A stretch of DNA of 58,687 nucleotides, counting the filler, from Nemertoderma westbladi (Eukaryota; Animalia; Xenacoelomorpha), in assembly GCA_032718475.1 (NCBI GenBank). It is 3 parts of 3 records of this genome, joined end to end, with 100 filler letters (N's around TTAATTAATTAA, not from the genome) between each part and the next. Parts side by side here need not be neighbours in the genome. Positions count along the whole stretch, not along the records: positions 35,558 to 58,687 come from JAUCBJ010006745.1; 2 more parts are not named here. One strand, given 5' to 3'. This document shows, in pieces, positions 3,193 to 47,644 of this stretch. The position numbers and the translations under genes are program-made. The notes beneath the pieces are model-generated. The model was not told where the DNA came from. It did no database searches and saw only the letters and a program-made list of their open reading frames with translations. Each line of letters opens with the position of its first letter. The first letter of the stretch is position 1.

Positions 3193-4644
3193 TCATCGCC
3201 AAATAAATAACTTGGCTCCCAGTCGATTACATTCCCAAGGGTAGGATGGATTTATATTATTATCAAACGAGATTGGTTCACCTCTCAGTTTCCTGAAAAA
3301 GTCGTCCATGTCACTGTCGGGTTCGTGTTTCGCCATGTATTTTATAGTACCGCATACTAAAGTAATATAGGGCGAACCATGATCATTGTATACTGGTAAA
3401 CTCTCACCAGGTCTGCAACCCATCCCAACCGCTATATGATTAAACATAAAAGGGCCAGATATATCCAATTCCACGGCTTTTTTATCATCGCTCGAATCTT
3501 GGCAAGTTTCGATGAAGAAAATCCTCGGTTTGGGTGGATAACTTAACGGCTGACATTCAGTGGCAAACATTTCCACGATGTCTCGAATAGGTATTCCCTC
3601 GCCATCGGAACATATTATCGTTCCGTTACTCCCGTGACTCATAATGAAGCACACAAGACATTCCACATCATCAAGGTCATCGCCCTCAAGGAATTCCGCG
3701 ATGCGATTTATTAATCCAGGTGCACCACAATATCCGTTAATTAGTTCTTTAACCTCAAAACCAAGTTCGCCAAATACCTTCTTGATCCTCTTAACGTCGT
3801 ATACAGAACCTTCTTTTCTTGATTGAAGTCGTTCCTGAAATTCTGTGAGATTAATAATAACGCACAACTTCTTTCCTTCCTTCGTTATCTTGTAGGTTTT
3901 GTTTATTAAAGTGGAAGACGCAACTATTGGAAGAGCGAAGGCACCAAGCGAACTCTCCTCTGTGTCCTCTTCGTTGGTGGTAGGTCTAACAACTTCAGGA
4001 ATTTGAGGTGCCGGTACATATGTCCCTCTACAATTACCATTATTCCTCGAAGAATCGCCATTATCGGGTACGTCCTTATGTTGGCCTACAAGGTTTCCCC
4101 TAGTAATATCTAGGAGACGGACCCCATACTCAATAGCTAGAAGGCCACTTTCGTCTTGCGTGGAAGTAATCATATTATGTTTTGTTGTGTTTGCGTTTTC
4201 GATGTAACCAAAACCCCCTGCAGCGATTCCTCTACTCTCAGCAGGAGCCCAACTGGTTTTAAGTTCAATGGCCTTTAAGGTAGTCTCATTATTTAGACTG
4301 TTAAGAGCTCGAGAAGGATTCGCTAACAATTCATCGAGACCTCTGCATAAAATGCGCCTCAATGCCTCATCGCCAGTATTGTTTCCGGCTATAATATCAC
4401 AAAATCTTAAGAAGTCAACATCAGGACAGGAATGCTGCAGTTTCTGGAGGAGATTAAAAAGAACTTCGTCGCGTTTCTTAATCAGGTATTCGGAACCCAC
4501 TGGTCCAATTATGTCTTCGATTTGGGAGGCAGTTAAGACACCGCGAGTTTTTAACACCCTAATAACCCGTTTGTAATCAAAACCTTCATCGCGTAATAAG
4601 ATTTCATAGCAATTGTCCAGCAACTGCTTTAATCCTTTCCTCAT
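3193..4644 (-). CDS. Caspase-family (peptidase C14A-like) protein with N-terminal CARD-like death fold, paralogue A
   Basis: 483-aa intronless ORF with LCVIIN..F, R.EGS..D, FIMSHG (His337), KPRIFFIETCQD (Cys381) and small-subunit GSPYITLVC. The N-terminal ~100 aa show a CARD-like pattern (VIRVLKTRGVLTASQIEDI). Confidence 0.88.
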   Translation of the reverse strand: MRKGLKQLLDNCYEILLRDEGFDYKRVIRVLKTRGVLTASQIEDIIGPVGSEYLIKKRDEVLFNLLQKLQHSCPDVDFLRFCDIIAGNNTGDEALRRILCRGLDELLANPSRALNSLNNETTLKAIELKTSWAPAESRGIAAGGFGYIENANTTKHNMITSTQDESGLLAIEYGVRLLDITRGNLVGQHKDVPDNGDSSRNNGNCRGTYVPAPQIPEVVRPTTNEEDTEESSLGAFALPIVASSTLINKTYKITKEGKKLCVIINLTEFQERLQSRKEGSVYDVKRIKKVFGELGFEVKELINGYCGAPGLINRIAEFLEGDDLDDVECLVCFIMSHGSNGTIICSDGEGIPIRDIVEMFATECQPLSYPPKPRIFFIETCQDSSDDKKAVELDISGPFMFNHIAVGMGCRPGESLPVYNDHGSPYITLVCGTIKYMAKHEPDSDMDDFFRKLRGEPISFDNNINPSYPWECNRLGAKLFIWR

Positions 4645-7372: not shown

Positions 7373-8845
7373 ATGAGGCCAAAATTAAACGAGTTGCTGG
7401 ACAAGTGCTTTGAAATCTTATTAAATGATGAAGGATTTGATTACAAACTGGTTGTTAAGCTGTTAAAAATAAGAGGAGTCTTCAGTAGTTCCCAAATCGA
7501 AGACATAATTGGACCACTAGGTTCCGAATACCTGATTAAGAAACGAGAAGATGTTCTTTTTAATCTCCTCCAGAAACTGCATTCCCGTCCTGATGTTGAC
7601 TTCTTAAGATTTTGTGATATTATAGCCGGAAACAATACTGGAGATGAGCCCTTGAGGCGCATATTATGCAGAGGTGTCGATGAATTGTTAGTGAATCCTA
7701 CTCGAGCTTTAAGAGATGAGACTACCTTAAAGGCCATTGAAACTCTTAAATCTAGTTTGGCTGCTGTTGAGTGTAGAGGAATAGCCGAAGGTTACGGTTA
7801 CATGGAAAACGCAAACACAACAAAACATTTAATTACTTCGACGCAAGACGACGAGGGTGTTGGATCTATTGAGTATGGGGTCCGTGTTGTAGATATTAGT
7901 AATGCCAACTCAGGCCAACCTAGAGATGTACCAGATGAAGGAGATAGGAATAGTCGTAGAGCGACTTCCATGCTTAAAACTGCAGAAGATAGTCGTCGGG
8001 TGTGGGCTGCTTCTGGCCCGGTTCCACAAACTCCAGAAGTTGCTAGACCTGCCACCAACGAAGAGAGGACAAATGCGAATTCGCTTGGCGCCTCCGCTCT
8101 TCCAAAAGTTTCGTCTTCCTCCCCAATAAACAAAACCTACAAGATAACGAAAGAAGGAAAGAAGTTGTGCGTTATTATTAATCTCACAGAATTTCAGGAA
8201 CGACTTCAATCAAGAAAAGAAGGTTCTTTTTACGACGTTAAGAGGATCAATAAGGTATTTGGTGAACTTGGTTATGAGGTTAAAGAAGTAATCAACGGTT
8301 ATTGTGGTGCCCGTGAATTAATACAACGCATCGCGGAATTCCGCATGGGGGATGACCTAGATGATGTGGAATGTCTTGTGTGCTTCATTATGAGTCACGG
8401 GAGTTACGGAAAGATAATATGTTCCGATGGCGAGGGAATACCTATTCGAGACATCGTGAAAATGTTTGCCACTGAATGTCAGGCCTTAAGTTATCCACCC
8501 AAACCGAGGATTTTCTTCATCGAAGCTTGCCAAGGCTCGAGTTGTGATCAGAACGCGGAAGATTTAGATATATCCGGGCCTTTATTTAATCATATAGCGG
8601 TTGGGATGGGTTGTAGACCTGGTGAGAGTTTACCAGTATACAAAGATCAGGGTTCTCCCTATATTACTTTAGTATGCGGTACTGTAAAATACATGGCGAA
8701 ACACGAACCCGAGAGCGACATAGACGACTTTTTCAGGAAGCTGAGTCGTGAACCGATCTTGTATGAGGATAAAAAGAAGCGGATGTTCACGTCCTATCCT
8801 TGGGAATGTAATCGACTGCGAGACAAGTTATTTATTTGGCGCTGA
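7373..8845 (+). CDS. Caspase-family protein with N-terminal CARD-like death fold, paralogue B
   Basis: 490-aa intronless ORF, a clear paralogue of 3193..4644, with FIMSHG (His342), KPRIFFIEACQG (Cys386) and the same C-terminal KLFIWR. Confidence 0.9.
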   Translation: MRPKLNELLDKCFEILLNDEGFDYKLVVKLLKIRGVFSSSQIEDIIGPLGSEYLIKKREDVLFNLLQKLHSRPDVDFLRFCDIIAGNNTGDEPLRRILCRGVDELLVNPTRALRDETTLKAIETLKSSLAAVECRGIAEGYGYMENANTTKHLITSTQDDEGVGSIEYGVRVVDISNANSGQPRDVPDEGDRNSRRATSMLKTAEDSRRVWAASGPVPQTPEVARPATNEERTNANSLGASALPKVSSSSPINKTYKITKEGKKLCVIINLTEFQERLQSRKEGSFYDVKRINKVFGELGYEVKEVINGYCGARELIQRIAEFRMGDDLDDVECLVCFIMSHGSYGKIICSDGEGIPIRDIVKMFATECQALSYPPKPRIFFIEACQGSSCDQNAEDLDISGPLFNHIAVGMGCRPGESLPVYKDQGSPYITLVCGTVKYMAKHEPESDIDDFFRKLSREPILYEDKKKRMFTSYPWECNRLRDKLFIWR

Positions 8846-12373: not shown

Positions 12374-13978
12374 CTACTTCCTAAGATACGCGAGTATTTC
12401 CTGCACCATATTGTCCTTATCAATTAGCCATTCCTCCCTAGCGTTTGTGTTCCTCAACTTAACCTTCCCTTCCTTTAGTTCGCTCTCCCCTATAATTACC
12501 ACCAAAGGAATCTGTCTTCCCTCGCAGTACTGCAACTGATCCAACATCTTGGGATTGCGTTTGTACATGATCTCCGCGTTAATCCCGTTGGCCCACAGCT
12601 CGTTAACTAAAACCATCCGGTGTTCTAGAAGGTTCTTCTGAGCCGCTGCGACTAGAACCTCGGTCGAGGTGGTTCGGAGTTTCGATAGATCCCGTTTCGA
12701 TTCTATTATCGCGAACAATCGCTCGATCCCGATACTCACGCCGACGCAGGGGACTTTACGTCCCTTCGCGTCGAACATTCCCACGAGATTGTCGTACCGG
12801 CCGCCGCCTGCGACACTCCCGACACCGGGGTTCGAGCCATCTTCCACACCTGTCCCTTCCTCCCTAGCTGACTCGAACCCAACCAACACCGCTTCATATA
12901 TAACCCCCGTGTAATAATCCAACCCCCGGGCCAAACTGACATCGAACGCTAGAGACTCCCCCAGGCCGAACAAGCGACAGTACTTCAACAACAACTCAAT
13001 CTCCTCCAGTCCCGTCTTAAACTCCACATTCCCCATCAAATCCTCTCGTTTCCTCAGCACTTCCACCAACCCCTCAGATGATTCGTGACTAATCGATACC
13101 AACTCCCCCAGTCGATCAGCCTCGGATTCCCCCAGGAACTTCTCCTCAACCATCTCTTTACGAACTTCCTCCCAGGATAATTTATCGAGTTTATCAATAG
13201 AGGAACAAATGGTTCGGAATTTATCGTTAGTAACTCCGGCTACCGCCATTATCCCGTTTAATAACTTCCGGTGATTCACTTTAATGCGGAACTTCCCGAG
13301 GTCCAAGTCCTCGAGGATTTCCGACACGATTTTGATGCATTCCGCGTCGGGAATCATCGAGTCGTAGATTCCGGCGATATCTATGTCGCACTGGTAGAAC
13401 TCCCGATAGCGACCGCGGGTCATCGCCGGGTTGTCCCGTCGGTACACCTTCGCGATCTGGTAGCGCTTAATTTTATCGATTTTATTCTGCGCGACGTAGC
13501 GTGCGAATGGAACCGTAAGATCGTAGCGAAGCGACAGAAGTTCCCCGCCCTGATCGCAGAGATCGTAGATTAATTTAGAATCCTCCCCGTACTTTCCCGT
13601 GAGAGTTTCTTTCAGTTCGAACACCGGGGTGTCTATTGTTTCGGCACCATGGCGTTTAAACGTCGTAGTAATTGTGTTTATAACGCTTTCTCGAATGCTC
13701 ATTTGTTTCGGATTGTAGTCGCGTGCACCCTTTGGAGTTTTAAGAACATACTTACCAATTCCGAATTCTTCTTGTAGTGTAGCCTTCAATTCCAAAAGCT
13801 TATCGACTTCCCGTTTCACTTCGACTGCAGCCACTTTCTCGATTTTAAGTCTTCTCACCAAATCCCCCTGCTCCGTAATTTTCGCTTGGATAGCTTCCTT
13901 TGAAGCTACCGGTAGTTTTACATCCGCCATTTGAATAATTCTAGTACCGGAATGCAACAACTTTTTTGCATACAACAT
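12374..13978 (-). CDS. HARS: Histidyl-tRNA synthetase, eukaryotic type with WHEP domain, intronless
   Basis: WHEP ([12 protein letters not shown]), [22 protein letters not shown], motif 2 [29 protein letters not shown], motif 3 [15 protein letters not shown] and the C-terminal anticodon-binding domain. The ORF track starts at GTG 13984; the first in-frame ATG is at 13978 and the second at 13930. Confidence 0.97.
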
Positions 13979-31009: not shown

Positions 31010-32188
31010 ATGATGTCGTCAGGAGATTGTGAGGTTTCTTCTGAGGTTGATTCATTGAAGCATGTCAATAGTATTTCAGAACCATCAAAATCTAAAAAAA
31101 GTCCGTGGCACAAACAATGTCAAACGGACGGTGATTGGCGCAAGCAATGCCAAACTGACGGCGACTTTGGCGAACCAACATCACCAATATCCTCACCAAT
31201 TATTGACATGGAAACCAACTCCATAGAGAAAAATCCAACCAAAAAGACGGTTTGGAACAAATTAGACAATAAAAAGGAATTGACGGATGTATGTTCGGGA
31301 GATTCATCTAAGGAAAACCCGAAACCGGCAAAGATTGCTATTCTACAGCTGGATGATTGGCCGTCTCTTAACGAGACGTTGACTTCGGAGCAGATGAGAC
31401 GTGAGAACAAGATAAAGGAACCGTCGAGCAACGACGAGGAAGAAGTCGAGGACGGAAAAGAAAACCTGGAGGTTGAGTCCAACGTCGACCTCGACTGCTT
31501 GGAGCCCAAACTCGAGAAACGCAAATCGGCTAAACCTAAATGGACTCCTTTGCCGATCGAGTTGCCCAAAGGCGAGCGAGTCGCGTGTTACAGACGGAGT
31601 CCCCCGCCCTATTCGCGTGGCGGCGGCCGCGGCGCCAGTTGGGCGTTCCGTGGGGCCGCCAGCTACCGACCGCCGCCCCGGCGGGAGCGCGAACTCGCCC
31701 GCGACCAGGCGGCCGCCCGTCGGGGCGGGAGGGCCTCGTTCCGGGGCGTCGGGGCCCGCGGCGGTCGGCACCCGGTGTACCGACACCGGGGTGCCTCCGC
31801 CGAGCGCTACACCGGAGCTTCCTTCCAGTACGCCGCCGACGGTTCCGCCGTTTATTCGCCGAACCCGCAGGTTTACGAGCAACTTACCTACATCGTTCCG
31901 TTTACGAGCTCAGTCCCGGCTGGCGGAAGTGCCGGACTCAAAGAAGGAATAAAAAAACAGATCGAGTACTACTTTAGTGTGGAGAATCTCCAACGGGATT
32001 TCTTTCTGCGTCGGAAGATGGACCGGGAAGGTTTCATCTCGATCCTCCTTCTCGCCAGCTTCCACAGAATCCAGGCGTTGACTCAGGATCTCAACCTTAT
32101 TGTTGATTCAGTGAGAGACAGTGTTCTGGTTGAGGTAATCGATGGGAAGATTCGACGGAGGGAGAATCCCATGGCGTGGCCCATACAG
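31010..32188 (+). CDS. LARP1: La-related protein 1, coding exon 1 (RG-rich region and La motif)
   Basis: DWPSL, KPKWTPL, RGG repeats and La motif [35 protein letters not shown]. Phase-0 donor CAG|GTGGGT at 32188/32189. ATG 31010 is the first in-frame ATG; an upstream exon is not excluded. Confidence 0.9.
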
Positions 32189-33049
32189 GTGGGTGGTTTT
32201 GGTTTACCGATATATTGTAAGATAATGTTTTCAGGTACCCCCAGTGCCTCACCTTGTGGAATTATTAATTTTTAATCAGGTCAACAATATCGGCGTATAT
32301 TTCGTTAGGCCTATTTCATTTAATGAGTTGAATTCTTATGTCAGTTATCGGTATAGTATCGTAATTGTTCAAATACTGTACAAATGATAGCCTACACATG
32401 CCGTTCTCCACACTATCTTTCTTTATCTTACAGTAATTGATTTTGGGTTTATTGTCGGATTAAATTCAATCATATCTTTACCTAGTCAAGAGGAAGTACC
32501 CGTAGCTTACAGTGCTGAATTTGTTAATATCACAAAGTATAATTGATGGCAATAGGCCGAGGCCTATATCTGGACTCATCTCAAAAATATTATTGATCAT
32601 CAAAATGTAAAATCGCTCAATCTGTCAATGGAACAATAGACAGGCTGACAAATTTACTAGATGATTTTTGGAACCGCGGCTCATAGGTCCAACACTCGTG
32701 AATGTATAACTGTTTTAAATAAAGTAATTACCGGTACATTTAAATAACATAAATTACATGCAAAATGATTCCGTTAATTTACATTAAATATTTAGAAATT
32801 ATTTAGATTTTTAGCTTTTTATCAAACTTATCTTGAAATTTGTTTTATTTTTTTACTGTTTTTTACTATTTTTTTACGGTAACGGCGTAATTTTGGACAA
32901 GATGATTATCACTAATGCGGCGTAGGATGTAACACCTCAAAAGTTAAAAATAAATGAATTTTTTGACAGTGGGACCCAACCCTAGCTGCCTAGTATATAT
33001 CGGTAAAAGTATTTGTGTAATATCTATTGTTTCATCTGTAATATTTCAG

Positions 33050-34822
33050 GATTACTTGGCTTACCACTTACAAGAGTCAAATATGGCGCCAACATTCGAT
33101 GCCAGCGTGTCAACCGAACCCTATTACATCCCCCACATATATAGTCCCGCTAACGCGCCCCATAACGACGCGCCGGGGGTTATCCTCAACGGGGTGCGGC
33201 CCCTGTACGACCCCAAGTCCTCCGAGTTGGCGGACTTCATCGACGTACCGGAATTCGTTCCGGGCCTGCCGTGGCCGACGAACCGATCCGCGCCGCCGTC
33301 ACCGGGCCGCGCCGGCCCGCGTCCGAGCCCGACCAACTCGGCGCCTGGGGGCGACCGAGGTCCGGAGCTCGAGCCCCGCCCGCCGCCGCCCGGGTTCGAG
33401 CGAACCCTCTCCTCCTCGGCCCCCGATCCCGCCGGCGGCCAGTGGACCGAGGTGAAACGCCGCGCGCGGCTTCCGTCCGTCGGCGCGGCCCGGCGCGATT
33501 CCGACTCCGACACCGACTCGCTCGAGGATCTCGACTTCCAATTCGACGAGGAACTCGAATCCAACCTCCCCGGGACCAGCCGTCGCCCTTACTTCATAGC
33601 GAACGCGGATTGGTCGGACGACGAGTCCCTCCTCGAGATCGAAGACCGCGACGTCAATAAAATCCTTATCGTTACCCAAACTCCACCCGCAGTAAAGAAA
33701 TCCGCTACGAACATCGACCTTCCGGCAGTCCGACAGCATCCGGCATCCCGGAATAAGTTAACCTCGGAATGGGCCAAAGTGATAAACGACGGGTTATTTT
33801 ACTACGAGTCGGATTTATGGGCGGAAGACGAGATTAGTTACAACGCGATCCGCGAGGAACTCCAGGCCTACAAGAAGGTCGAGGTGATTTCTAAAGAGCA
33901 TTTCGATGAGTTGAAACCCGGTCCACCCCCTGTGGATCAGGGGGATCCCCCTCCACCCCCCTTAACAGAAACAAAACCGATGAAGGTTCCCCCGTCGTTG
34001 ATCCCTAACTCGCCGCACCCGCGCGCCGCTCGCTCGTTGCCCAGCGACGGGGACGGCAACCCGCCGCCGCGCACGCCACGCGGTTGCGGCACGCCGCACA
34101 GCGGCAAGCCCCCGCATCGCTTCTACCCCGTCGTAAAGGAGACGCCGGCCCTCGACCGGGACGCGCCCCGGAAACGAAAGACTCGGCACAGCGCGAACCC
34201 CCCGGTCGAGCGGCACGTCGGCTGGGTGATGGACGCGCGCGAGCACCGGCCGCGCAGCGCCGCGAGCGACGTCGAGGAGCCGGCTCCCGGGAGCAGCGCC
34301 CAGTCGCTCCCGCCCTTCCAGCACCCCTCCCACGAACTCATGCGGGTCAACGGATTCGTGCAACACGTCTACCACAAATACCGCGCGAAGTGCCTCCGGG
34401 AGCGACGCAAGTTGGGCGTCGGTCAGAGTCAGGAGATGAACACGTTGTTCCGGTTCTGGAGTTTCTTCCTCCGGGAGCAGTTCAACCGGAACATGTACGA
34501 GGAATTCCGACGCCTCGCTCTCGAGGATTCCGACCGCGGTTTCCGCTACGGACTCGAGTGTTTGTTCCGTTTCTATAGTTACGGGTTGGAGAAAAAGTTC
34601 CGTCCCGAAATCTTCGATAACTTCCAGACGGACACGGCCGTAGACTACGAGAAGGGTCAGCTCTACGGGTTGGAGAAGTTCTGGGCGTATCTGAAATACT
34701 CGCGCAACCAGGTTGACATCCCGCCTGTGTTGCAGGACGCCTTGCGGCGGTTTAAGCGACTGGAGGACTTCCGGGTGGACCCCCCACTAGCGGCTATATC
34801 AGAGCACCCCCCCGAGCAGTGA
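33050..34822 (+). CDS. LARP1: La-related protein 1, coding exon 2 (PAM2-like motif and DM15 cap/TOP-binding domain)
   Basis: Acceptor TTTCAG|GAT at 33049/33050 is in phase with exon 1 (861-bp intron, 983-aa product). Contains [30 protein letters not shown] and DM15 [50 protein letters not shown]. Confidence 0.95.
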
Positions 34823-35557: not shown

Positions 35558-38500
35558 AGTTCTAGAATCAAAATATGTCCATTTAATTATCAAATAATAA
35601 AATTTCAGGGAATAAATTTAAATTCATGTCTTTTAATGAATTTAATAAATTGCCATTTTACGCGATTTATAACATTCCCAAAATTCCATAAATTAATAGA
35701 TCAAGGGAGCGGAGATTTATATTATTATGCGTATGCGTGTACGAAAGTCTCCCAAACATAGTTAATAGCCGATAAAATTCGTAAAGTCATGTATAAACAG
35801 GACATTGACTATTAAAGAATTACTATTAAATAACATCCCAGATCTGTATGCATTGGAATCACCCTAATTCTACCGCTAGCTTTGCATAATGTCACCATAG
35901 CAACAACCACGCTAGAATTAGAATTGAGTTAAACGAACAATAGAAAGCTTGTCCCATTAAATAGCATAGGGAATAAATAGCACACTACTAGTATCCAAGG
36001 ATACATAATAATACAGTGACATTCTGGAAGGCATTGACTAACGGACAAATGGCCCGAATGTGTGTAATTTGTGACAAGTTGTGTGTATGGTATTTGTGAG
36101 TTTATAGGTGAATGTTACTGCTAAGGTGTGTTTACAGTAGCCAGTTGCAATCGTAAAGTAACCTAACTCTCCAAGGAATACCTGAAGTACATCTAAGCCT
36201 TTGGGACGGACAGTCGAGTGACTTGTGCCGGTTGTCGTTGTCGTTGTGCGGCTACGTCGTTGGCGAAAGTACGGCGGCGACGACACATCGGCGCTGAGGA
36301 TCTCGTACTGTCCGGGGGTTGATTGGGGTAGGCAGCGACGCCCGCTCGCCTAAATATAAACTCATTATAATATGGATAAACTCATATATAGCAGATATGA
36401 CGGAGTTGATAGAAGATGGTCTTGGTATCGGGGAGCGATATACTCTACTTTACAAGCGTTTGTTGATAGCTTAATACGCGGCGACGTTAGTCCAACTGCT
36501 GCGGAGGACGATGGTCGTTATATCGAACCGACAATGTCCCAAGTGCAGCTCGCGCGAGTTGGACTATAGAAAATTCGCTGCTCGATATACGCAGCGTAAT
36601 GGTACGTATATGGTCTTCTTAACTACTGGTCATCCTATCGATTTACACAATACGGACTATGTCGACTATATATCCTGCCCAGCGGAGTCGGAACCATAAA
36701 CGGAAATTCGAATGCGAAAATTCTATTCGAAATCGACTCGAAAGAAAAGACACTTAAGAAACAAATGGACGCGGTAACTCCAACGTATATTTGGAATTCT
36801 TGATAGAAGCATTGTAACAACAAATAAATATCACCCGCGTTTACCCTACCAGACGTGCGTCTTTGGTATTATTACGATAAATGCCCTAGACCCAACTAAT
36901 AAACGGAAAGACATAAACATCCACGTAAACCGAAACTTGTTGACGTATCACCTATGCTCACTCGGCTCGAACGATCCTGGAGTAAACCTACGATCAGAGT
37001 CCCGGAATACTCGGTCAAACCTCCTCATTCCTTAGTTGGACCTCAGACCTGCGATCTTGGTGGTGTCGCGGATCCTCGCGGACTGTATTCACTGTTCAAA
37101 GATCTAGTGCTACCCTAACAATTAATCGGTAACACTCCGACAGTGATTTCTAGCTAGCCGCCCATCTTACCTAGCCGGATTGTGACGCGGACACCTAATA
37201 TCACTATCCAACCGTATGGTCGTCCACGTTTAACGCGATACAACCCCTCATCAAGGTGAAGGAGAGCGTTGTACGAAACGAGTTAAACGCTAATTTATAA
37301 AGATCGAAAAGGAAACCTGCGTTTGTTCAGATAAACGTAAGTTATAACAGTGAGTCCAATCGATAAACGAATTGGCCTTATCTCAATTCGATTGGGAAAT
37401 CCAGAATCTCTAAGAAGTTATCGAACTTGGACGATCCTATTCTCTGCGAGAGTTTTTGGATGAACGTATCCAGCTACGAGCGGAGGAAAATCAGCTCGAG
37501 GAGAAGCATATCGAAACGGCAGATACCTCGACCACAATCCTACACCTTCTGATGCAATCATATTGCACCCTTCACCCAGGAGTTATGGCCCTCCTAGTAA
37601 AGTGGCTCCCCCCAAAGAGAAAAAGACTCTTGCTAGCCTCAAAAAACTGCGTAAACGCCGTCTGCGCAAGAAAGACTAACTGTTTAGAGTATCTTTATGT
37701 TTTAGAAACTGTGATTTTTATATTTTATAGACTGAAAATCCCATTTTCTGGGAGCGGTGTAAAAGCCTTTGCTGAATTGCCCCGTTATTTTTATTATCTT
37801 TTACATTAAAATACTCTGTAGTTGATTTAATAAGTGTAAGAGACCGTATTATTGCTGTATCGGTGTTTTTAGAGGATCTAAGACCTATTTCCTCCGTATG
37901 TGTACTGTGAAAGGCATATTTTATGATTCTATGGCAATTCGTGACGCAAAGGGGTGATAGCTACTCTTGAACAGTAGTTACTATGACTACGGTTAACAGC
38001 TGACATTCATACGTGTTGATTTCCTTTGTTCTACGGCGTCTCTCAGTTCAGTCAGCCAATTAGAGCGTTTTTGTGGCTCCTTGTACAGAAAATTTCCGAG
38101 AAATGACGCAATGCCTATGTGCAGTGTTTACATTCAGTCTTGAGCCAAAGAAAGAACGGCTTGGAAGTATTTTGTGCTGTACTGCTTTTAGTCGTACACT
38201 AGTAGGTTTAATTATAAAGGGCATATATCCTTTAACGGACCCTTGAATATCTCACTGTAAATATCTCACTGCTGACATACCAGTGCTGATGTACCGATCT
38301 ACCTAACTGTTCAGTTGTTGTGTTTACTGCTATTTACTGTCAGTTCTTCATAATATGGTTGATGAATTATTATATTTGGAATAACGATAAATAACCCCGC
38401 AACCCAATATTCTTGATATACCGAAGGTAAGAGAGAAAGGTTACCAATAACGATTGTGACTTATGTTAAAGTGGTTTGAAGTGAATCTAATGTTATTTGA

Positions 38501-39425
38501 TAGACCCTACATGAGTCAGCCTGTGTTCCTTTTATATGTGACTAAAATCAGTGAAGATTGGCAGATTAGTGTGCAGTATTGTGCAGCATTGTGTATGAGT
38601 GAGTCTGTTAAAGAAGCAATTCCTAAAGAATGCGCCATATATGTGAATTATAATTAAGCCATATCGTTGTGAGTAGTTTAAGTCATAACTCTGTTTATAT
38701 AGATAAAGCGCCACGTCCTAAAGGAACTGTTAATATTACCGAAGGTGAATAATATTGTCAGAGATTATATAATACTGTCAGTCGAATAATACATTAGGCT
38801 TACATAGCAATAAAAATTAAACCGTCGAACCCAATCTCCCGGGAATATCCAGCGGGTGAATGGTCGCGCACGGATTGGTTTCGACTAGTGTAGTGAATCA
38901 AATACTTGTCATAGACTAAAAAACAGATTTAATATCTAGAAGACATCTTAATTTGGTAGGTTAAACTGCCAAAGGTCTGAAAGCGCGAACAGTAACTAAG
39001 TATCAGTGATAATCTGGACAATTGTATCAGATGATTTTTTTGTATATTGTCATACCTCTGACTTACTAAATAATTAATATATGGCGATATTTCAGACCAT
39101 TAATATAAACAAAGCTCTTATTATTAATTACATCACGATTGAGAGTTGTCACAAATTGAATACTGTGGTAATATCAATATAATTAGACCAAAGATTTGTC
39201 ACAATACGTTTCCCCTAAAGGGAAACACAATCACCAGACTTGAGTCCTTACAGAATTAATTAGTCAGTCAATTACTTGTTATACTTTGTTGTCACACCCT
39301 CCCGGTATCGTATCTCAGTTAAATACAATAGATAATCAAATACCGTATTGAACTAAGTGAAATATAGAGCAAATCAATGCATCGAAGGGAAAAAGGGTAA
39401 ATAAACAGATACAGTGAGCGGCGCT

Positions 39426-40373
39426 TGTTGACAGGTACACTAGCGCAATCCCGTTCATTGTATCAGACCGGACATTTTGTCTTCATTTTTGCATGGTTTA
39501 TCAAGTAACAGAAAAAGAGTCAAAATATATTATCAAATGCGCTAACAGTAATAACCAACTCTCAGTGAGTGTTTTTCGAGTGTTTTTCCTCGAGTGTTTT
39601 TGATTTGCTTATTTGTTCTATTAATATACTTATTTCTACTGTTTCGATAGGCCATCGTAATTAGTAGGAATTGAGTGCATAGATATTTACTGATTTATAT
39701 TGTAAACCTGGCCCGTTTATTGTATTTTTCGGTGAGTATTCTGCAAGTATTTGATAAACTTATTTACTGGTGTATAACCGGAGAGTGTAAAGGAGTACTT
39801 TATATACCCTTATTTATAATTGGTGTATTTGTTGTTTTTTGCTTTCACGTATTGGTGAGTTTTGAACATTAACTGATAGCGCCCTATGTTTCGTTGGACC
39901 TTGTATGGCGTAGACATTCGTTTTCTACTGTAAGTCGGGTACAATAGGTAAATTCCCGCTGCAGTAATTCTAGATTGGTCGGGTCAGATAATAGACGGAA
40001 TCTCATATTTACCGTACAACATCTTACTGCAGGTCTGCCTACTGTGAATTACCGGTATCTGATTGCTCGGCTTCATAGTGTATTGAGTAAATGTGTAGTT
40101 GTTCTGTAGGCCTCATTTTACCCCCTATTTCACTCCTATTTCCATTATTGGAACACATAAAGTTTTTATCTCCTTGTGGGAGGAAATATAACTTTTCGAT
40201 GAAAATTTCCGACGAATTACCTTTCATACTTGGTTTTACGGAATTAAGGCGCAGATTATTATCGTCCTTGTTGACAGGTACAATAGCGCAACTCCCGTTC
40301 ATTGTATCAGACCGGACATTTTGCCTTCATTTTTGCATGGTTTATCAAGTAACAGAAAAGAGTCAAAATATAT
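39426..40373 (+). repeat. ~105-bp dispersed direct repeat (copies at ~39426-39531 and ~40268-40373)
   Basis: TTGTTGACAGGTACA.TAGCGCAA..CCCGTTCATTGTATCAGACCGGACATTTTG.CTTCATTTTTGCATGGTTTATCAAGTAACAGAAAA occurs twice. Confidence 0.85.
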
Positions 40374-40881
40374 GAAAATTGAGAGTGAAAGAACATATTT
40401 ATAAAATGCGCTAACACAAACAGTTTGTGTTTAATTATCACAGTCGGACTGTAAATTAATAACAGTTCACGTCTGATGTTAAAATCAAAACTAATTAATA
40501 TAAGTTAATATTGGCAAAAAAGTCGACAGAACAAAAAATATAAGGTTAACTAATTAGAATGAGTATTATAACTAGCATTCGCACACAAGCAAAGGACTCA
40601 TGACAACCAGCTTTCTACTATTTGTTTATGTTTCTATTTATTGATTATTGATGATATTGATATTATTTCTTTACTGATAAAACTCAAACCAATCGAATAT
40701 CTATTTCTGGAATTTACTATAAGATTAAAATGGTTCGATTACAATTTGTTTGCCCATTGTTATGTACAACTGAATTTTCCGGGAAAAAATATCCGGACTA
40801 GATTGTCCTGTGCCGAATTGTCCAACATCCATCATCACATCAAAGTGTTATTAATGGCTATGAGTTGTGTTACAGTTGCAC

Positions 40882-43800
40882 TTAGTCTACCTTTTTAGCA
40901 TTGACAGCTTTCAAACCGGATGTGGTGAAGACTAAATTGAATTTTATATCATGACGTCCCTTCGCCAATAATCTCCAGTTTGGTATTTGTCCAAGTTCAA
41001 AATCTCCAATGTGGTTTACAATTAAATTATCATAACCCCGAACTTTAACTGAATTTGTTGTATCGGTGGGTCGTCCTCTAAATTCCCTTCGTCCTTCTGT
41101 TTCATAACGTTGGATTGGGATTATTCCGGCAATTCCTGGTTTTTCTCCAACCATAAATAATTTTTTATTGTTAATAATACTTTTTGGGTGCTTTTTCCCC
41201 CCAAGATTTTCAAAAAAATGTCCAGCCTCTCTGATTTGTTTTTCCTCTCCTCCTTGGATACCTTTTGTGAACAACAGAACTCCATAGAAAAAATTAGACA
41301 GCATCAAATCTTTATAGTTTTCACACCAAGTTTTTGCAACAAAAATAAGTATATCCAACGTATATACGTCAAGAAAGTGATCTGAGGGCTCCTTATGATG
41401 CAACATTATGACAGCTCTGATGAAGTCCTCGAATGTTGACGATAGGACCTTGGCAGGATTCGACGACCACCGACGTTCTGTTTCTTTAATAATCCGTCGC
41501 AGTTCAAAAGATAAAAGTTCAATCCAATTTTTTGGATTTGCCTGGGCTTGATATCTTATGAGGCAACTAACTGGTATGCACATATTGTCCTTAACACATG
41601 TGAAGAAATGTTCCATATCAGTTGAATACAAGCGTGTGGTTTCCAGCCCATGATGCATTTTTAAAATTTCCAGGAACCACTTGTAGCGTTGCTCAATATT
41701 GATGGCTTTTTCACACAAGCGCTCTTCTCTTTCCAGGGTTTGAAATGCATCCATAATTTTACCATATTCATCAACACAGTTTTTCAAGTCCTTCAGCTCC
41801 CCATCTAGAGCATCACAAAAAGTTGATGAATTTTTGTTACAACCGTGTTCATAAAACATATCCAATGTATAAAAAATAGCTTTCAACTCCCCGATAAATG
41901 CACCGGGATGATAAAGCCAGATTTTTGAACGAACTCGATTATCGCGTGACACCGGTTTATGCTGTGCAAATTTGAAAGCCATTCTTGCTTCTTTCCCTAT
42001 TTCTACGACATCGCTCAATGTTTTTCCATGTTGTCTTTCCATATTTGTTAAATGGAGAATTCCACTACAATTTGAGAAGGTTTTCAAATATTTTATTTGG
42101 GCACATAACAAATGCCCATACATTACCAGCAAATCGGCACTTGATCCATTATAACAGTTAATGTTTTCACAAATTTTAAGACCTAACACTTTCTTCATTT
42201 CTTCTATCGACTTTTTATGATCTTTCAGTTCGTACATTAGGAATCTCGCATATACTGATCGAATACCATTGACGTGATCTTTTTTCAGTCTCCTGTGACT
42301 CTGTAACTTTTCAATGAACATGGGTAAAGCTGACGCTGCGGCATTGAAATATATTAAATTTTGTGTAAAGTTTGTATTGTAGTAATTTGGAGAAGTCTTT
42401 TTCTGAACCAGGTCAAGGACAATATCTCCAATGTCGTCACAACTGGAATCTGTTAGATTGCTCAATATAAATTTCAAATCATTTACTAATATATCGATCA
42501 CCTTGGGTTTAAACATTTTAGTATATACATCCATATGGTCTTGACTAGTACGGGTAGGGGTAGAGTGTCTTTTTCTTGTTTTCTCCGAAATTGTATTTTT
42601 TGGTTCATAGAAGATGTCATCATGATATTCCGCACCTGGTACAGAATGTATTAGCACAAAGGGAATAAGGCAATGATCAGCCAGTTTTATACCTGCTCTT
42701 TCATATCCATCACTATTTTCATCAGTGACAAACAAGTCACTAATGAAGCATATATTATGTCTGAGATCTAGAAATGTTTTTATTTTGGTCTCCATATTTA
42801 AAGTCATTGAAGCAATTGTCAGAGGAAGTTTTCCGGTAGTTGAACAATGTCTCATCAGGCAGGCCAATCTTAAAATGCGTTGTTCAGTATTACTAGCTTC
42901 TGCAATACACAACTTGATATGATGTTCAATTCTGTCATACTTTCTAGAAAATTTGAGCAGCCCCAGTAAGAAAATATTGTGTGCTGAATTATCGTAAAGT
43001 TTTCTGAATGCTGCTATGTCCACTTTGTCACATGCATCATCCAATTCAGACTTCATATAAACTTTCAATTCATTATGCTTTTCCATATTGGGAATATCTT
43101 CATGAGTATCATCGTGGTCTGATTCAAATTCAGTGATGGCGAATCGATATGGTATTCTCAACACATGTAAAATTACACAGTGTACTTTTCTATCTTCCAA
43201 ATTTTGGTTAAGTGCCCGAACCTCTGACCTGGAAAATTTATCATCAATGCATATCAATAAAGGAAGCTTATCAGAACGGTCATAAATGTCTTTAGCTGCC
43301 TCATAAAACTCATCATTGTCAGAAACAAAAGGTAATATGATTTCCATTGCTGGATGTCTTTCTCTCAACTTGAATAAGGTGACGCGTGCAGCAGTAGTTC
43401 CCCCACCAGATGGGTCATGCTTTACTGTAATGATGTTCGATTTTGGGTTCTGCGGCCAGAAAGGCTTTTGATTCAGCCTATCCTCTGCCATTGTGCGAAG
43501 ATTCTGCATTTCCGATCTATCAACATATAAATGCAGTTTTTCATTGATGTACAAAGTTTCTGGAGTTATTTCATTACCCTTCAAATAATTATTTTGATGA
43601 TTAATCATTTCTTCTTCTACTTTACTGCCCAAGTTATCCCAATATTCCTTTCCAATATTTATATGATACATTGTCATCAAAGATTTGTAGTCATTGAAAG
43701 TATCCGGTGGCATTCTCCATGTCCTATGGCTACGTGAAGGAAAAGTATACTCTTTTAGATCAATGAGATTTGACCTACCAAACCTATCAAACATTATCTC

Positions 43801-45810
43801 ACATAATATGTGTAATTGGACAGAAATAATATTTTGCGGCTTAAGTTCAGCAAAATGTTGATATGTACCATCTGTGTTCATTGCAAATATAAATATATTC
43901 GAGTTATAGATGTTTCTCGATGACTTAGTTTGTAAGTCCTCATTAAAAACAAGATGATTTAAATTGAATAGCAGATTTTGTATATCTTTTGTCCGTTCGT
44001 TATCCATGCCAAATGATAGAACTGTAACCGTCACTTGTCTTCGCCTGTCAAATCTTGCAGCAATTCTATTTAGCAATGGTACAAATTCGTTTATTATAAT
44101 AGATGTTATTTTTTGTCCAACTTCCTTTTCATACATTCGCACACACAATGTGGCTTGTGAAGCACTCACCTTCAACTCTCCTGATTCTTTCATTTGTTCG
44201 ATTTCTGCAGGTTTGATTATGTCCACTGATTTATGATTCAGAATTGTACTCTTAATAAAGTAGAAAATATCCCACATGTTCTTATTCTCTGACGATATGG
44301 AAAAATCTAACACCATATCCCAAGGAACAGTTCCAATGGCACCACCATAATACTTATATTCTTGGGGTTTAACAAAATTATCAAAATGATCAAGAATTAG
44401 AATCTTAAAACTTTCACTATTTTCTATTATTGACTGTTTCCACTCCTCAAGCTTTGAGGATACGCCATTGTCGTTATCATAGTCAGTAATTACAATTGGA
44501 TTATTTGTAGTTTGCATTTCTAGGAAAAATTGCTTCATTTCTTCCACAATGTTGCCTGTTTTTTGTAACGTTTTATAAAGAACATTGATACTACATCCGA
44601 TTGGAAAAAGACAAGAATTGATTGTGCTTGCCATATTTTTGTCGCTAAGAATTTCATAAAACCAATTTCTAACTTCATCGAACTTGCTCTCATTGCATTC
44701 TCTACTTTGCTGAATATGATTAATGGTACTTCGAATATCATCTGAAATCCCCACCAGTACTTGCGTTTGCAATTCTTGGTTATCTACAATCCATCCAACA
44801 ATCCATCGTAATTGCTCGACATTTGTTCCCATACTTCTCATTAAGTCCGTCAGGATTTCGTCACATGCAGTCGGATTCATTTCCTGATTTTTCAATCTGT
44901 CAATGTGAATCTGAAGTTTATTCTTATCTCCAATTGTGAGATCTATCAATAAATCACTCAATATTTTCCATTGTTTTTCGAAGACCCTATTAGTCATTGC
45001 CAGTTTTGGTACATGTCCATAGTATTCATTTCTTATAGAACGGAGATTATTTAAGCAAGCACTGACATTTGGATCATTGTATATCCCTTTCACCTTTAGC
45101 AAATCAAAGAGGTTTAGTATTAGTGTTATATCAAAATTAGATGCATCCGAAGCTGCACCTCTTGGATAGAGTATTTCCATGAATAATTTGGCATCTTTAT
45201 TTGCTGAAATTTCTTTCTTATTATGTGTCAGAAAATGTAAGAATGATTCTGGGTTTTTGAAGTTATCATATAATTTCTTCCTTTTTGCATCAATGTCACA
45301 AACTTTTGCACAATCTTTTTGCAGGCTTTTTGGGCCTAGTTTGATGAGAATTTCTAAGCATTTTATGTCAATAATTTTGGTGATACCACTTTTCATCATA
45401 TTACCAGCTGGAAACACTTTATCTTTCTGATCTTCAAACTTGAGTTTTTCCATAAGTGTTTCACGGTTATCATCTAAGATTTGCATCATTCCGCCGGCAT
45501 ATTGTTTGCATTTTGATTCAAATAGACGTTGTAGTATTGTTGTCCCTTCCGATAAAAGAAGACCAATGTATTTGAGTCCATTTATTTCTTGTGGCGATCG
45601 TGGACATACTGGATTGCTACTCTTTCCTGATGCACTTTCCGCATTACTAGTTGTTTGCATAGGAAGCTTGGAGGTCTTTGAACTATCTAACACAACTTCT
45701 TCACATGTCGAAGTGGATGACAGAGACAAATACCTATTGCTTACTGCCATTGGTACATGTTGCTGATCCTCTTGACGTTGCCTTGGAATATTCTTTGTTT
45801 TTGGCATCAT
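40882..45810 (-). CDS. SAMD9-family-like STAND P-loop NTPase (SIR2-like, NTPase, helical/TPR, OB-like) with an N-terminal DZIP3-type HEPN domain
   Basis: 1642-aa uninterrupted ORF. Lys-less Walker A HDPSGGGTT (aa 798-806) resembles SAMD9 HHPGCGGTT; Walker B PLLICIDD (~850-857); VPWDMVLDF (~495) resembles the SAMD9 SIR2-like region; C-terminal FNLVFTTSGLKA resembles the SAMD9 terminal F.LGF...GP.A strand. The N-terminus has LYP..S.FDITL and RNEYYGH (aa 260-266). Confidence 0.85.
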   Translation of the reverse strand: MMPKTKNIPRQRQEDQQHVPMAVSNRYLSLSSTSTCEEVVLDSSKTSKLPMQTTSNAESASGKSSNPVCPRSPQEINGLKYIGLLLSEGTTILQRLFESKCKQYAGGMMQILDDNRETLMEKLKFEDQKDKVFPAGNMMKSGITKIIDIKCLEILIKLGPKSLQKDCAKVCDIDAKRKKLYDNFKNPESFLHFLTHNKKEISANKDAKLFMEILYPRGAASDASNFDITLILNLFDLLKVKGIYNDPNVSACLNNLRSIRNEYYGHVPKLAMTNRVFEKQWKILSDLLIDLTIGDKNKLQIHIDRLKNQEMNPTACDEILTDLMRSMGTNVEQLRWIVGWIVDNQELQTQVLVGISDDIRSTINHIQQSRECNESKFDEVRNWFYEILSDKNMASTINSCLFPIGCSINVLYKTLQKTGNIVEEMKQFFLEMQTTNNPIVITDYDNDNGVSSKLEEWKQSIIENSESFKILILDHFDNFVKPQEYKYYGGAIGTVPWDMVLDFSISSENKNMWDIFYFIKSTILNHKSVDIIKPAEIEQMKESGELKVSASQATLCVRMYEKEVGQKITSIIINEFVPLLNRIAARFDRRRQVTVTVLSFGMDNERTKDIQNLLFNLNHLVFNEDLQTKSSRNIYNSNIFIFAMNTDGTYQHFAELKPQNIISVQLHILCEIMFDRFGRSNLIDLKEYTFPSRSHRTWRMPPDTFNDYKSLMTMYHINIGKEYWDNLGSKVEEEMINHQNNYLKGNEITPETLYINEKLHLYVDRSEMQNLRTMAEDRLNQKPFWPQNPKSNIITVKHDPSGGGTTAARVTLFKLRERHPAMEIILPFVSDNDEFYEAAKDIYDRSDKLPLLICIDDKFSRSEVRALNQNLEDRKVHCVILHVLRIPYRFAITEFESDHDDTHEDIPNMEKHNELKVYMKSELDDACDKVDIAAFRKLYDNSAHNIFLLGLLKFSRKYDRIEHHIKLCIAEASNTEQRILRLACLMRHCSTTGKLPLTIASMTLNMETKIKTFLDLRHNICFISDLFVTDENSDGYERAGIKLADHCLIPFVLIHSVPGAEYHDDIFYEPKNTISEKTRKRHSTPTRTSQDHMDVYTKMFKPKVIDILVNDLKFILSNLTDSSCDDIGDIVLDLVQKKTSPNYYNTNFTQNLIYFNAAASALPMFIEKLQSHRRLKKDHVNGIRSVYARFLMYELKDHKKSIEEMKKVLGLKICENINCYNGSSADLLVMYGHLLCAQIKYLKTFSNCSGILHLTNMERQHGKTLSDVVEIGKEARMAFKFAQHKPVSRDNRVRSKIWLYHPGAFIGELKAIFYTLDMFYEHGCNKNSSTFCDALDGELKDLKNCVDEYGKIMDAFQTLEREERLCEKAINIEQRYKWFLEILKMHHGLETTRLYSTDMEHFFTCVKDNMCIPVSCLIRYQAQANPKNWIELLSFELRRIIKETERRWSSNPAKVLSSTFEDFIRAVIMLHHKEPSDHFLDVYTLDILIFVAKTWCENYKDLMLSNFFYGVLLFTKGIQGGEEKQIREAGHFFENLGGKKHPKSIINNKKLFMVGEKPGIAGIIPIQRYETEGRREFRGRPTDTTNSVKVRGYDNLIVNHIGDFELGQIPNWRLLAKGRHDIKFNLVFTTSGLKAVNAKKVD

Positions 45811-47159
45811 GTGCAGAAGATAATAGTTAGAAAATTATTCAAAAGTATACTTATATGTTACATTAGTAATATATTATTACTTGTTGCACAGAAACTCAGA
45901 TGTATCATTGCATTGCTTGCATCATATTGCATTGCTTGCTACATAACTACATCAAATTCGGAACAAATTGGAAATTTTCTCATGAGAAAAATCATAAAAT
46001 TAAATTATGTGAATTGCGAAGGGTATACAATAATAGTTATGCATTGTTGAGTTTTAACAGCTATTGCAAATGCTAGAAATATTTTTCCTTTGAAGGGATA
46101 AATACAAGTCTCCTTTGAAGATAATTGTGCTCATTGACAATACCCTTGCTACTCCGCACTTGAATCATACCAACTAAATCAAATATTAAATTTTGACATA
46201 TATCAATCTGAAAAAAAGAGAAAAGGTCATTTTGTTGACTTAAAATGCAGTAAAAAATACCTGCCCCCCCCCCCCCCACCCCCTCTACAACCATGGAAAC
46301 ACTTCGAAAATCTTGGAATGCAATTAAATGTAAAAAAAACAGAAATTCTATTACTCTCACCAATAAAAAGAACATAGCACTTAAACAGTTTGTATTTAAC
46401 AATAAATAACAAGTAAACCAACCAATCAAAGATCATAAAATATCTGAGAATACTAATCGATAACAAACTGAACTTTAAATTTAAAGATCAAATACAGACA
46501 ACAACAAACAAAAAGGCGGGAGCAACATCATCTATAAGACAAATAAAAGGGCAAGTAGGGGAGAACAATGATACCTAACTTAAACTCTCTGAGGGAATAT
46601 CAATCAATCAATCAAATTTTTCTACAAGGCTGTTGTTCTAGAATTGTTCTAGAAGGTCAACCATACTATTTAGTGTTAATCAGAATGAATGGCTGACATT
46701 AATCTGTTTTTTGTCTGGCCATCTCAGCACAAATTATTGAATAGATAGATCTGGTAGGCCTAAAATGAAACTCACTGTCAAAACTGGGCAGTAAAGCTAC
46801 TGTATAAAATATCAAGGAATTTAAGAAGGAATACATGTGTTCAGTGGTGGATAGTTATTATCTTTCAAGAGTTCATTTCAGTTCGCTGCTCGACAACTCG
46901 CTGCCACGTTGTGTGTGAGAAAAGAAAGCGCCGACAAGGGGGTTGATACATCATTTTTCAAACACGGAACAATTATTTAACAATGGTTGCAAAGTTGGAT
47001 CCCTTTAAAAACCTATCTATAATCGCCATGCTGCATTGCAGCATGACTTAACAGCAAATACGGCGGCTTAACAACAAAATTGCGCTGCCCGCACACAATC
47101 CACGATCAGCATGCTACATTGCGAGATTATTCGCATCTTCAAGGTCACAGGCTGGTCCT

Positions 47160-47430: not shown

Positions 47431-47644
47431 TTCCATGTGCCTATGGTTTTCTTGGATTGGAGCCTTTGGTTGTCTAGGTCAGTAAAGTGCTTGGCAGGAT
47501 TTCGTCGAGTTCTGGAGCCAGTATGAGCTTTTACCACCACCAAATCTTCATTATAATGGTCGAAGGACATGCGTAGCAGGTAGTTAACCACAATTATTCT
47601 TGGTTGCCGTAGTCTGTTTGGGCCGGACTCATTTGTTTGGGTCG

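Follow-up and report, generated by a model that had tools for sequence, protein, structure and literature searches.

Does the sensor core of the SAMD9 family always drive the same nuclease, or can it be wired to another one? In humans, SAMD9 is known both for its antiviral action and as a disease gene, its effector is believed to be an AlbA_2 tRNase throughout animals, and head-swapping on SAMD9-like cores has so far been known mainly from bacterial Avs systems. The question is raised by a locus of Nemertoderma westbladi (assembly GCA_032718475.1) encoding a predicted protein, P0001, in which a HEPN_DZIP3 domain precedes a SAMD9-type STAND core. The window analysed (58,687 nucleotides) consists of three parts joined by 100 filler N, and adjacent parts are not necessarily genomic neighbours; the P0001 gene lies within the part at 35,558–58,687, which comes from JAUCBJ010006745.1. 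The architecture of P0001 can be regarded as virtually certain. The reading preferred here, to which a probability of roughly 0.55 is given, is that P0001 may be a self-contained immune switch, in which opening and pairing would unite two HEPN motifs into an active RNase.

Reading frame and gene integrity

The open reading frame (ORF) of P0001 contains no internal stops, and an in-frame stop is located eight codons 5′ of Met1.

40882..45810, minus strand: single-exon coding sequence of P0001, a HEPN-SAMD9-type STAND protein of 1642 aa (ORF and one gap-free X2 contig)

A 5870-nt contig of the public run X2 spans positions 40430–46208 with 11 substitutions and no gaps, and, because a single contig covers this stretch without a gap, the frame does not owe its openness to an assembly error. 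A first-pass annotation, made from the DNA alone, had described the ORF as intact, without stating its strand, and had quoted eight motifs along it; both claims were confirmed, the motifs being GTTILQRLF (aa 89–97), LYP..ASNFDITL (214–230), LRSIRNEYYGH (256–266, with R260 and H266), FEKQWKILSDLL (277–288), PWDMVLDF (496–503), HDPSGGGTT (798–806), LLICIDD (851–857) and FNLVFTTSGLKA (1624–1635). The gene is AT-rich (34% GC over the 4.9-kb frame), which prompted the consideration of a horizontal origin; this was set aside because the GC content at third codon positions (GC3) of 0.32 is similar to that of two caspase genes in the window (0.38). The window is eukaryotic and intron-poor, with single ORFs for both caspases, a WHEP-bearing histidyl-tRNA synthetase and parts of LARP1, a gene content typical of an animal.

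The HEPN head

Pfam searches clearly indicate a HEPN head. With the full protein, PF18738 (HEPN_DZIP3) matched aa 211–315 with 41.8 bits against a gathering cutoff of 27 (E 1.2e-10) and was the sole above-cutoff match in the whole of P0001; with aa 70–325 alone, the score was 50.4 bits against the same cutoff (E 2.7e-13), in line with the earlier expectation of a DZIP3-type HEPN domain at aa 70–310. The domain begins near aa 75 and carries an insert of about 80 residues in its first half, common to the relative P0002, where it resembles a partial repeat. The structure prediction places the RNEYYGH motif at the end of a helix (aa 247–264), and the hallmark of HEPN RNases, Rx4-6H with an Asn (N261) after the Arg (R260) near the helix end, is present.

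44851..45603, minus strand: HEPN_DZIP3 domain, aa ~70–320, with an ~80-aa insert in the first half (Pfam PF18738; alignment A1; leave-one-out score of 54 bits)
45013..45033, minus strand: R260-N-E-Y-Y-G-H266, an Rx5H motif and predicted RNase half-site at a helix end (sequence and model; column shared by five of nine full-length relatives)
44467..44850, minus strand: helical, probably coiled-coil linker, aa 321–448, poorly conserved (model helices with a predicted local distance difference test score, pLDDT, below 50; no leave-one-out score)

The first-pass annotation had recognised no SAM or AlbA_2 signature in the head, and the searches agree: Pfam revealed no SAM match in the whole protein or in the head region and no SLFN_AlbA_2 match with E limits of 1 or 10, and a profile from five AlbA-bearing relatives did not match P0001 at E < 1. 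With Pfam and this profile, HEPN was the sole effector candidate found in P0001. A below-cutoff Pfam match to BLUF (aa 82–138, E 0.014) was rejected as noise; in the alignment, these residues fall on the initial HEPN helices of relatives. The linker that follows the head had been annotated as a coiled coil; it is helical in the model, though with low confidence.

The SAMD9-type core

A profile made from an alignment of P0001 with eight relatives was compared with 177,635 PDB sequences, and human SAMD9 (37ib_A) was the sole significant match (E 6.7e-18, 500 positions; next match E 0.038); a search with the single P0001 sequence found nothing among the PDB sequences, PADLOC and NCBIfam. The core model (aa 445–1642, 22 sequences, pLDDT 77, predicted template modelling score 0.61) led to the same protein. 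The top six Foldseek rows were all human SAMD9 (best E 1.2e-29, template modelling score 0.53), followed by Avs5 (1.3e-10), as the first-pass annotation had anticipated for aa 450–1642. A second aligner gave a Z-score of 27.3 over 962 residues, pairing P0001 449–1641 with SAMD9 389–1589 (next non-SAMD9 row 11.4); the root-mean-square deviation (rmsd) of 14.2 is attributed to domain placement, and the identity in the structure alignments is only 12–15%. The order of domains (SIR2-like, STAND NTPase, TPR, OB) is that of the SAMD9 family.

43780..44466, minus strand: SIR2-like Rossmann domain, aa 449–677, likely catalytically dead (structure match to SAMD9; catalytic motifs replaced)
42511..43743, minus strand: Delta/lineage-insert region and STAND NOD module, aa ~690–1100 (family profile match to SAMD9 37ib_A; structure alignment)
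43393..43419, minus strand: Lys-less Walker A, H798..G803-G804-T805-T806 (sequence; His-to-Thr spacing as in human H737/T744)
43156..43260, minus strand: Walker B D856-D857 and sensor-1 R885 (sequence and alignment; human D799, D800 and R837)
41191..42510, minus strand: TPR-like helical region, aa ~1100–1540 (model; leave-one-out score of 175 bits)
40885..41190, minus strand: C-terminal OB-like beta domain, aa ~1541–1642 (beta strands in the model; alignment reaching SAMD9 residue 1589; leave-one-out score of 30 bits)

The SIR2-like domain alone aligned with human SAMD9 389–622 (Z-score 15.9, rmsd 3.2, 197 aligned residues; next row 10.8). The GAG loop and TxNxD, which we take to be the catalytic motifs of sirtuins, are replaced at both positions in P0001 and eight relatives, and judging by these residues the domain is likely catalytically dead.

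The SAMD9 family is defined by a Walker A of the GG[T/S] type without Lys and a conserved upstream His (PMC5445408, PMC13600222; these and the other published systems are described here as presented in the accessible parts of the sources). In the ATP site, H798 corresponds to human H737, G803-G804-T805 to GGT 742–744, D856-D857 to D799-D800 and R885 to R837; the second Asp of Walker B and the sensor-1 Arg are variable among the relatives of P0001. The NTPase had been assigned to the SAMD9 type rather than to NACHT or NB-ARC, and this assignment stands: the Walker A lacks Lys, neither domain gave a Pfam match in P0001 at E up to 1, and the best NLR fold row for the core model in Foldseek, NLRP9, reached E 1e-3 versus 1e-29 for SAMD9.

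A colinear family with variable heads

The relatives search, with aa 180–1379 of P0001 against 1.84 billion representatives, gave 37 matches at E ≤ 0.001, 13 of them at E ≤ 1e-10. Eight of the 37 are proteins of 1414–1495 aa that follow P0001 colinearly over its whole length (19–23% identity); a ninth full-length relative, P0047, came from a cluster listing. All nine are ENA or Logan records, with pairwise identities of 23–66%. HEPN was found by Pfam above cutoff in six of them and below cutoff in one, and the remaining two (P0006 and P0010) possess a degenerate HEPN recognised by alignment only; the motif RxxRNxxYGH is kept in five. In a leave-one-out test, a profile was built from the nine relatives with P0001 excluded, and each region was compared with 50 shuffles. 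Five of the seven regions of P0001 scored far over the shuffles (HEPN 54, SIR2-like 48, NOD 221, TPR 175 and OB 30 bits; best shuffle ≤ 5.3 bits), and residues 1–70 and the linker (320–450) gave no score; the regional matches of P0001 to its relatives exceed chance.

These results bear on the suspicion that a HEPN gene and a SAMD9-like gene were joined artificially during assembly or gene calling. The sequence of the linker is not conserved, which would favour this reading, but the whole frame is spanned by one contig of another run and nine independent proteins share the domain order, so this explanation is close to refuted.

Some matches reflect the head only. Seven of the 37 rest on HEPN alone (NACHT, ankyrin or tandem proteins), and word-based protein searches, which were almost insensitive here, gave no matches with P0001 itself, seven with alignment A1, five of which were HEPN-NACHT/WD40 proteins matched via HEPN only, and one with alignment A2. 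The best look-alike in the Atlas (0.98) is an 84-member cluster (1444 aa) in which 45% of the members carry HEPN_DZIP3, a lead in the same direction. A locus search with alignment A1 gave no usable pattern.

Several other proteins with SAMD9-like cores were observed. P0020 and P0026 (JGI and ENA proteins of 1010 and 1030 aa) represent a second HEPN-headed SAMD9-like branch with RxxRDxxYGH; their heads are recognised by a broad profile of HEPN domains, at E 4.5e-4 and 9e-3, and have no Pfam HEPN match, and their tails show a weak CCCH zinc-finger match without the full TPR-OB end. The P0056 cluster (24 members, 1342 aa, nSTAND5) has a core that resembles SAMD9 and begins at aa 208 (profile probability 99), and a 200-aa head with KxxxNxxxH, HEPN-like by eye and without a Pfam match; it may be of the bacterial HEPN-STAND-OB type described in 2013. 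P0015, from an amoebozoan transcriptome (Cavostelium apophysatum; possibly a contamination), has a head that is weakly AlbA-like (E 0.014) on a SAMD9-like core; the accessible part of PMC12680541 reports no protozoan matches. P0014 (Brachionus calyciflorus) and P0058 (Macrostomum lignano) have SAMD9-like cores and short heads with no recognised effector domain.

Phylogeny and exchange of the effector

Two core trees were constructed with the heads and human SAMD9 excluded and with midpoint roots. The NOD-core tree (34 rows, 368 columns) omitted a single short fragment, near-duplicates within clusters and proteins matched by HEPN only; the SIR2-to-end tree used 25 chosen rows, 909 columns and a simpler model, with imprecise start cuts in some outer rows. 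The nine relatives form a clade in both (96/97, together with three fragments, in the NOD tree; 98/96 in the SIR2-to-end tree). This clade belongs to a wider group (99/97, and 100/99 with 17 rows, respectively), in which AlbA_2-bearing Macrostomum proteins, a headless rotifer protein, the Cavostelium protein, P0020/P0026 and P0001 also branch from an open fork; the AlbA_2 proteins of molluscs and starfish fall outside it, as do the kinase-like TCAD9 proteins. The closest named relative of P0001 is P0012 of Macrostomum lignano (profile comparison E 2e-61, 1069 columns), which is part of the 17-row group.

Since a single core lineage bears both HEPN and AlbA_2 heads, its effector slot can be exchanged. 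P0001 is a member of the wider SAMD9 family, in which the loss of AlbA_2 is permitted (PMC5445408), and not a SAMD9/9L-type tRNase. The effector-swapped homologue proposed by the first-pass annotation is upheld to this extent, and none of the sequence-level outcomes that it had named as refuting was observed (a HEPN match, an NTPase of the SAMD9 type, neither AlbA_2 nor SAM); with an open fork and midpoint roots in the core trees, the head may have been swapped once or repeatedly and in either direction. A HEPN-only tree (25 rows, 116 columns) had no resolution and carried no signal on the origin of the head.

A broader view is offered tentatively, at somewhat less than even odds: there may be a second old eukaryotic SAMD9 lineage with plug-in heads, including AlbA_2 and an active DZIP3-type HEPN RNase (in up to three branches), with dead HEPN heads or no head at all maybe serving as decoys or brakes. 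The HEPN-headed colinear family itself shows that eukaryotes can couple this one type of sensor to a predicted RNase of an unrelated kind.

Comparison with known systems

Human SAMD9 and SAMD9L (PDB 9zjr, 37ib; PMC5445408, PMC13600222, PMC10246899) share with P0001 the SIR2-like/NOD/TPR/OB order, the predicted fold from end to end, a Walker A with His and GGT, a DD Walker B and the sensor-1 Arg, but have SAM and an AlbA_2 tRNase where P0001 has HEPN_DZIP3 and a helical linker. Invertebrate SAMD9-like proteins of Macrostomum lignano (P0012), Dreissena (P0032), Acanthaster (P0037) and Biomphalaria (P0044) have the same core as P0001, with heads of AlbA_2 (and CARD) instead of HEPN. According to PMC5445408, the heads of SAMD9 homologues include SAM, DEATH-fold and kinase domains; HEPN is not listed in its accessible text, and neither HEPN nor DZIP3 was found in its supplements or in the part of the PMC12680541 supplements that was available.

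The HEPN domain has its own precedents. In animals, HEPN_DZIP3 is fused to NACHT, TPR, CARD and DEATH (PMC3710099), and the pearl oyster has more than 50 HEPN-NACHT genes (PMC9646362). These invertebrate HEPN_DZIP3-NACHT receptors (PMC3710099 Table 1, PMC9646362) have the same HEPN family and motif N-terminal of a STAND NTPase, and some end in TPR or WD40; unlike P0001, they contain NACHT with a normal Walker A, and the source passages describe no SIR2-like or OB domain and no tested function. The bacterial HEPN-STAND(-OB) proteins reported in 2013 (PMC3710099, with an example from Bacillus cereus) possess an N-terminal HEPN, a STAND NTPase and, in some cases, a cold-shock-like OB; by a one-sentence description only, this is the nearest printed layout to P0001, and no link to SAMD9 is drawn in that passage. 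Bacterial Avs5, Avs6 and Avs9 (PMC12680541, PMC12931631) possess a SAMD9-like core whose N-terminal effector varies (SIR2 NADase, PNP or AlbA_2) and can be exchanged; a HEPN version is not named in the source passages, and the SIR2 of Avs5 is active, unlike that of P0001. Further context in print is given by PMC13245274 and bioRxiv 10.64898/2026.01.04.697583, likewise in their accessible parts.

A HEPN domain on a SAMD9-type core was not found described in the literature covered, most subscription papers being beyond that coverage. The HEPN-headed SAMD9-type fusion is a recurrent architecture, undescribed in that literature, with close precedents in HEPN-NACHT receptors and bacterial HEPN-STAND-OB proteins. 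The novelty is accordingly narrower than the candidate undescribed system put forward by the first-pass annotation.

Proposed mechanism and its alternatives

By analogy with human SAMD9, P0001 would rest as a closed, ATP-bound core, which infection sensing would open; the cores would then pair through SIR2/SIR2 and OB/SIR2 contacts, and the flexible linker would let two N-terminal HEPN heads meet. As in other HEPN enzymes, the two Rx4-6H motifs would form one composite active site, which may cut tRNA, rRNA or viral RNA, so that translation would stop in the infected cell. Human SAMD9, the only family member for which such a switch is known, rests ATP-bound and closed with its tRNase flexibly joined to the SIR2 domain, both kinds of contact are necessary for its activation, mutating its ATP-site residues abolishes antiviral activity, and its oligomers are proposed by the authors to unite the N-terminal nuclease domains (PMC13600222); HEPN RNases require two juxtaposed Rx4-6H motifs (PMC8266594). 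Taken by itself, the HEPN head of P0001 is probably an active RNase, and, given that activity, an immune role would be very likely.

Several points weigh against the switch proposed here. The His or more of the HEPN motif has been lost in four of the nine full-length relatives, so that R260 and H266 are conserved in the other five only, and the family appears, from these sequences, to tolerate a dead HEPN head. The HEPN insert of P0001 was modelled poorly, and the only HEPN-type fold match, to Csm6 (4rgp_B), was middling (Z-score 6.8, rmsd 5.0, 115 aligned residues), in a search with a 634-residue model (aa 70–703) dominated by the SIR2 domain. The winged-helix His of human SAMD9 (H985) has an uncertain counterpart in P0001, where H1046 is displaced by one column from the His of its relatives. 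P0001 sits on a long branch, which no supported node places with the main HEPN clade. No RNase tests are apparent in the titles and abstract openings of the papers found to name DZIP3 and HEPN.

The loss of the motif bears most directly on the main rival, in which the HEPN head is a non-enzymatic pairing or RNA-binding adaptor that recruits a separate effector such as a caspase. The four relatives concerned nevertheless retain an intact full-length frame, HEPN_DZIP3 alternates with death domains at the N-termini of oyster NACHT proteins (PMC9646362), DEATH-fold heads are present on SAMD9 homologues (PMC5445408), and two caspase genes lie about 32 kb off along the window, which is only suggestive. 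On the other hand, the exact R-N-x3-G-H motif is retained across very divergent family members and also matches the HEPN domains of unrelated architectures, it is intact in 194 of 202 oyster HEPN_DZIP3 proteins (PMC9646362), and P0001 offers no second effector candidate. The adaptor is considered unlikely.

An active, oligomer-switched RNase might also respond to a non-viral trigger (bacteria, parasites, transposon products or cell stress) and cause cell death. Nothing in the analysis links P0001 to viruses, its sensor region has the low identity to human SAMD9 given above, and remnants of LINE-type (long interspersed nuclear element) reverse transcriptases are plentiful in the window; the closest characterised relatives, SAMD9/9L and Avs5, are however antiviral, and this alternative is rated as rather improbable.

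The contigs of the public runs X1, X2 and X3, the sole source in which further copies were assessed, contain N. westbladi copies that are 80–90% alike; several such copies fit an expanding immune family. For one copy, the displayed differences comprise nine silent and four replacement codons (15 sites of 441 rows; the display favours alignable parts). The X2 allele of P0001 differs by eight replacement codons and one silent codon, without a sign of purifying selection in this small sample, which counts further against the proposed switch; the X1 allele has three silent and one replacement (four of seven differences displayed). The X2 ratio, the long branch and the 14 upstream ATG of the leader described below would suit a drifting paralogue of a small family, with an open frame and selection lost. 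Against this stand a 4.9-kb frame of 34% GC that a second data set likewise shows open and without gaps, the presence of all ATP-site and HEPN residues and the silent excess at the displayed X1 sites, and such drift is very improbable.

If the broader view of plug-in heads holds, P0001 would be the first STAND sensor of animal immunity with a HEPN RNase directly attached; it would achieve an RNase L-like shut-off without 2′-5′-oligoadenylate (2-5A) and would give a first handle on the targets of DZIP3-type HEPN domains, for which no tested activity was found in the literature search. Because HEPN enzymes work only as pairs, P0001 could serve as a natural reporter for the switching of an N-terminal nuclease by SAMD9 oligomers, and it is a simple test case for a domain present in hundreds of copies in bivalves.

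The 5′ leader

45811..46207, minus strand: likely 5′ leader portion of the coding exon, 397 nt, with 14 upstream ATG (X2 contig colinear to 46208)
46208..46225, minus strand: polypyrimidine tract and CAG, which probably form the 3′ splice site of an intron in the 5′ leader (sequence; X2 contig departs exactly here)

The X2 contig diverges 397 nt before the ATG, at the polypyrimidine-CAG, and continues with 91 other letters, and X1 continues colinear with the window. A 30-letter piece of the X2 loose end was not found in the window at up to three mismatches; the upstream exon, if real, is therefore elsewhere. The end of another X2 contig resembles what is presumably a template-switch adaptor of complementary DNA (cDNA) synthesis. 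These observations give a weak hint that the P0001 transcript is spliced in its leader; a DNA rearrangement is the alternative, and X2, which comes from one study, is not recorded as RNA. A leader with 14 upstream ATG could limit the translation of a toxic protein.

Other features of the window

3193..4644, minus strand, and 7373..8845, plus strand: two closely related intronless caspase genes, oppositely oriented; both encode a long N-terminal prodomain, and their active-site pentapeptides are altered (ETCQD, EACQG)
12374..13978, minus strand: intronless WHEP-bearing histidyl-tRNA synthetase
31010..34822, plus strand: LARP1, with its La and HEAT domains in two separate ORFs, which suggests one intron or a frameshift
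39424..40400: high-copy element of ~840 bp with direct repeats, adjoining the likely 3′ end of the P0001 gene
14200..18900, 47470..48640 and 49500..51710: long tandem repeat array and several broken copies of LINE-type reverse transcriptase

The contig depth of the element at 39424–40400 is 10 to 50 times that of the P0001 gene, and two of the reverse transcriptase copies are 94% alike over 896 bp.

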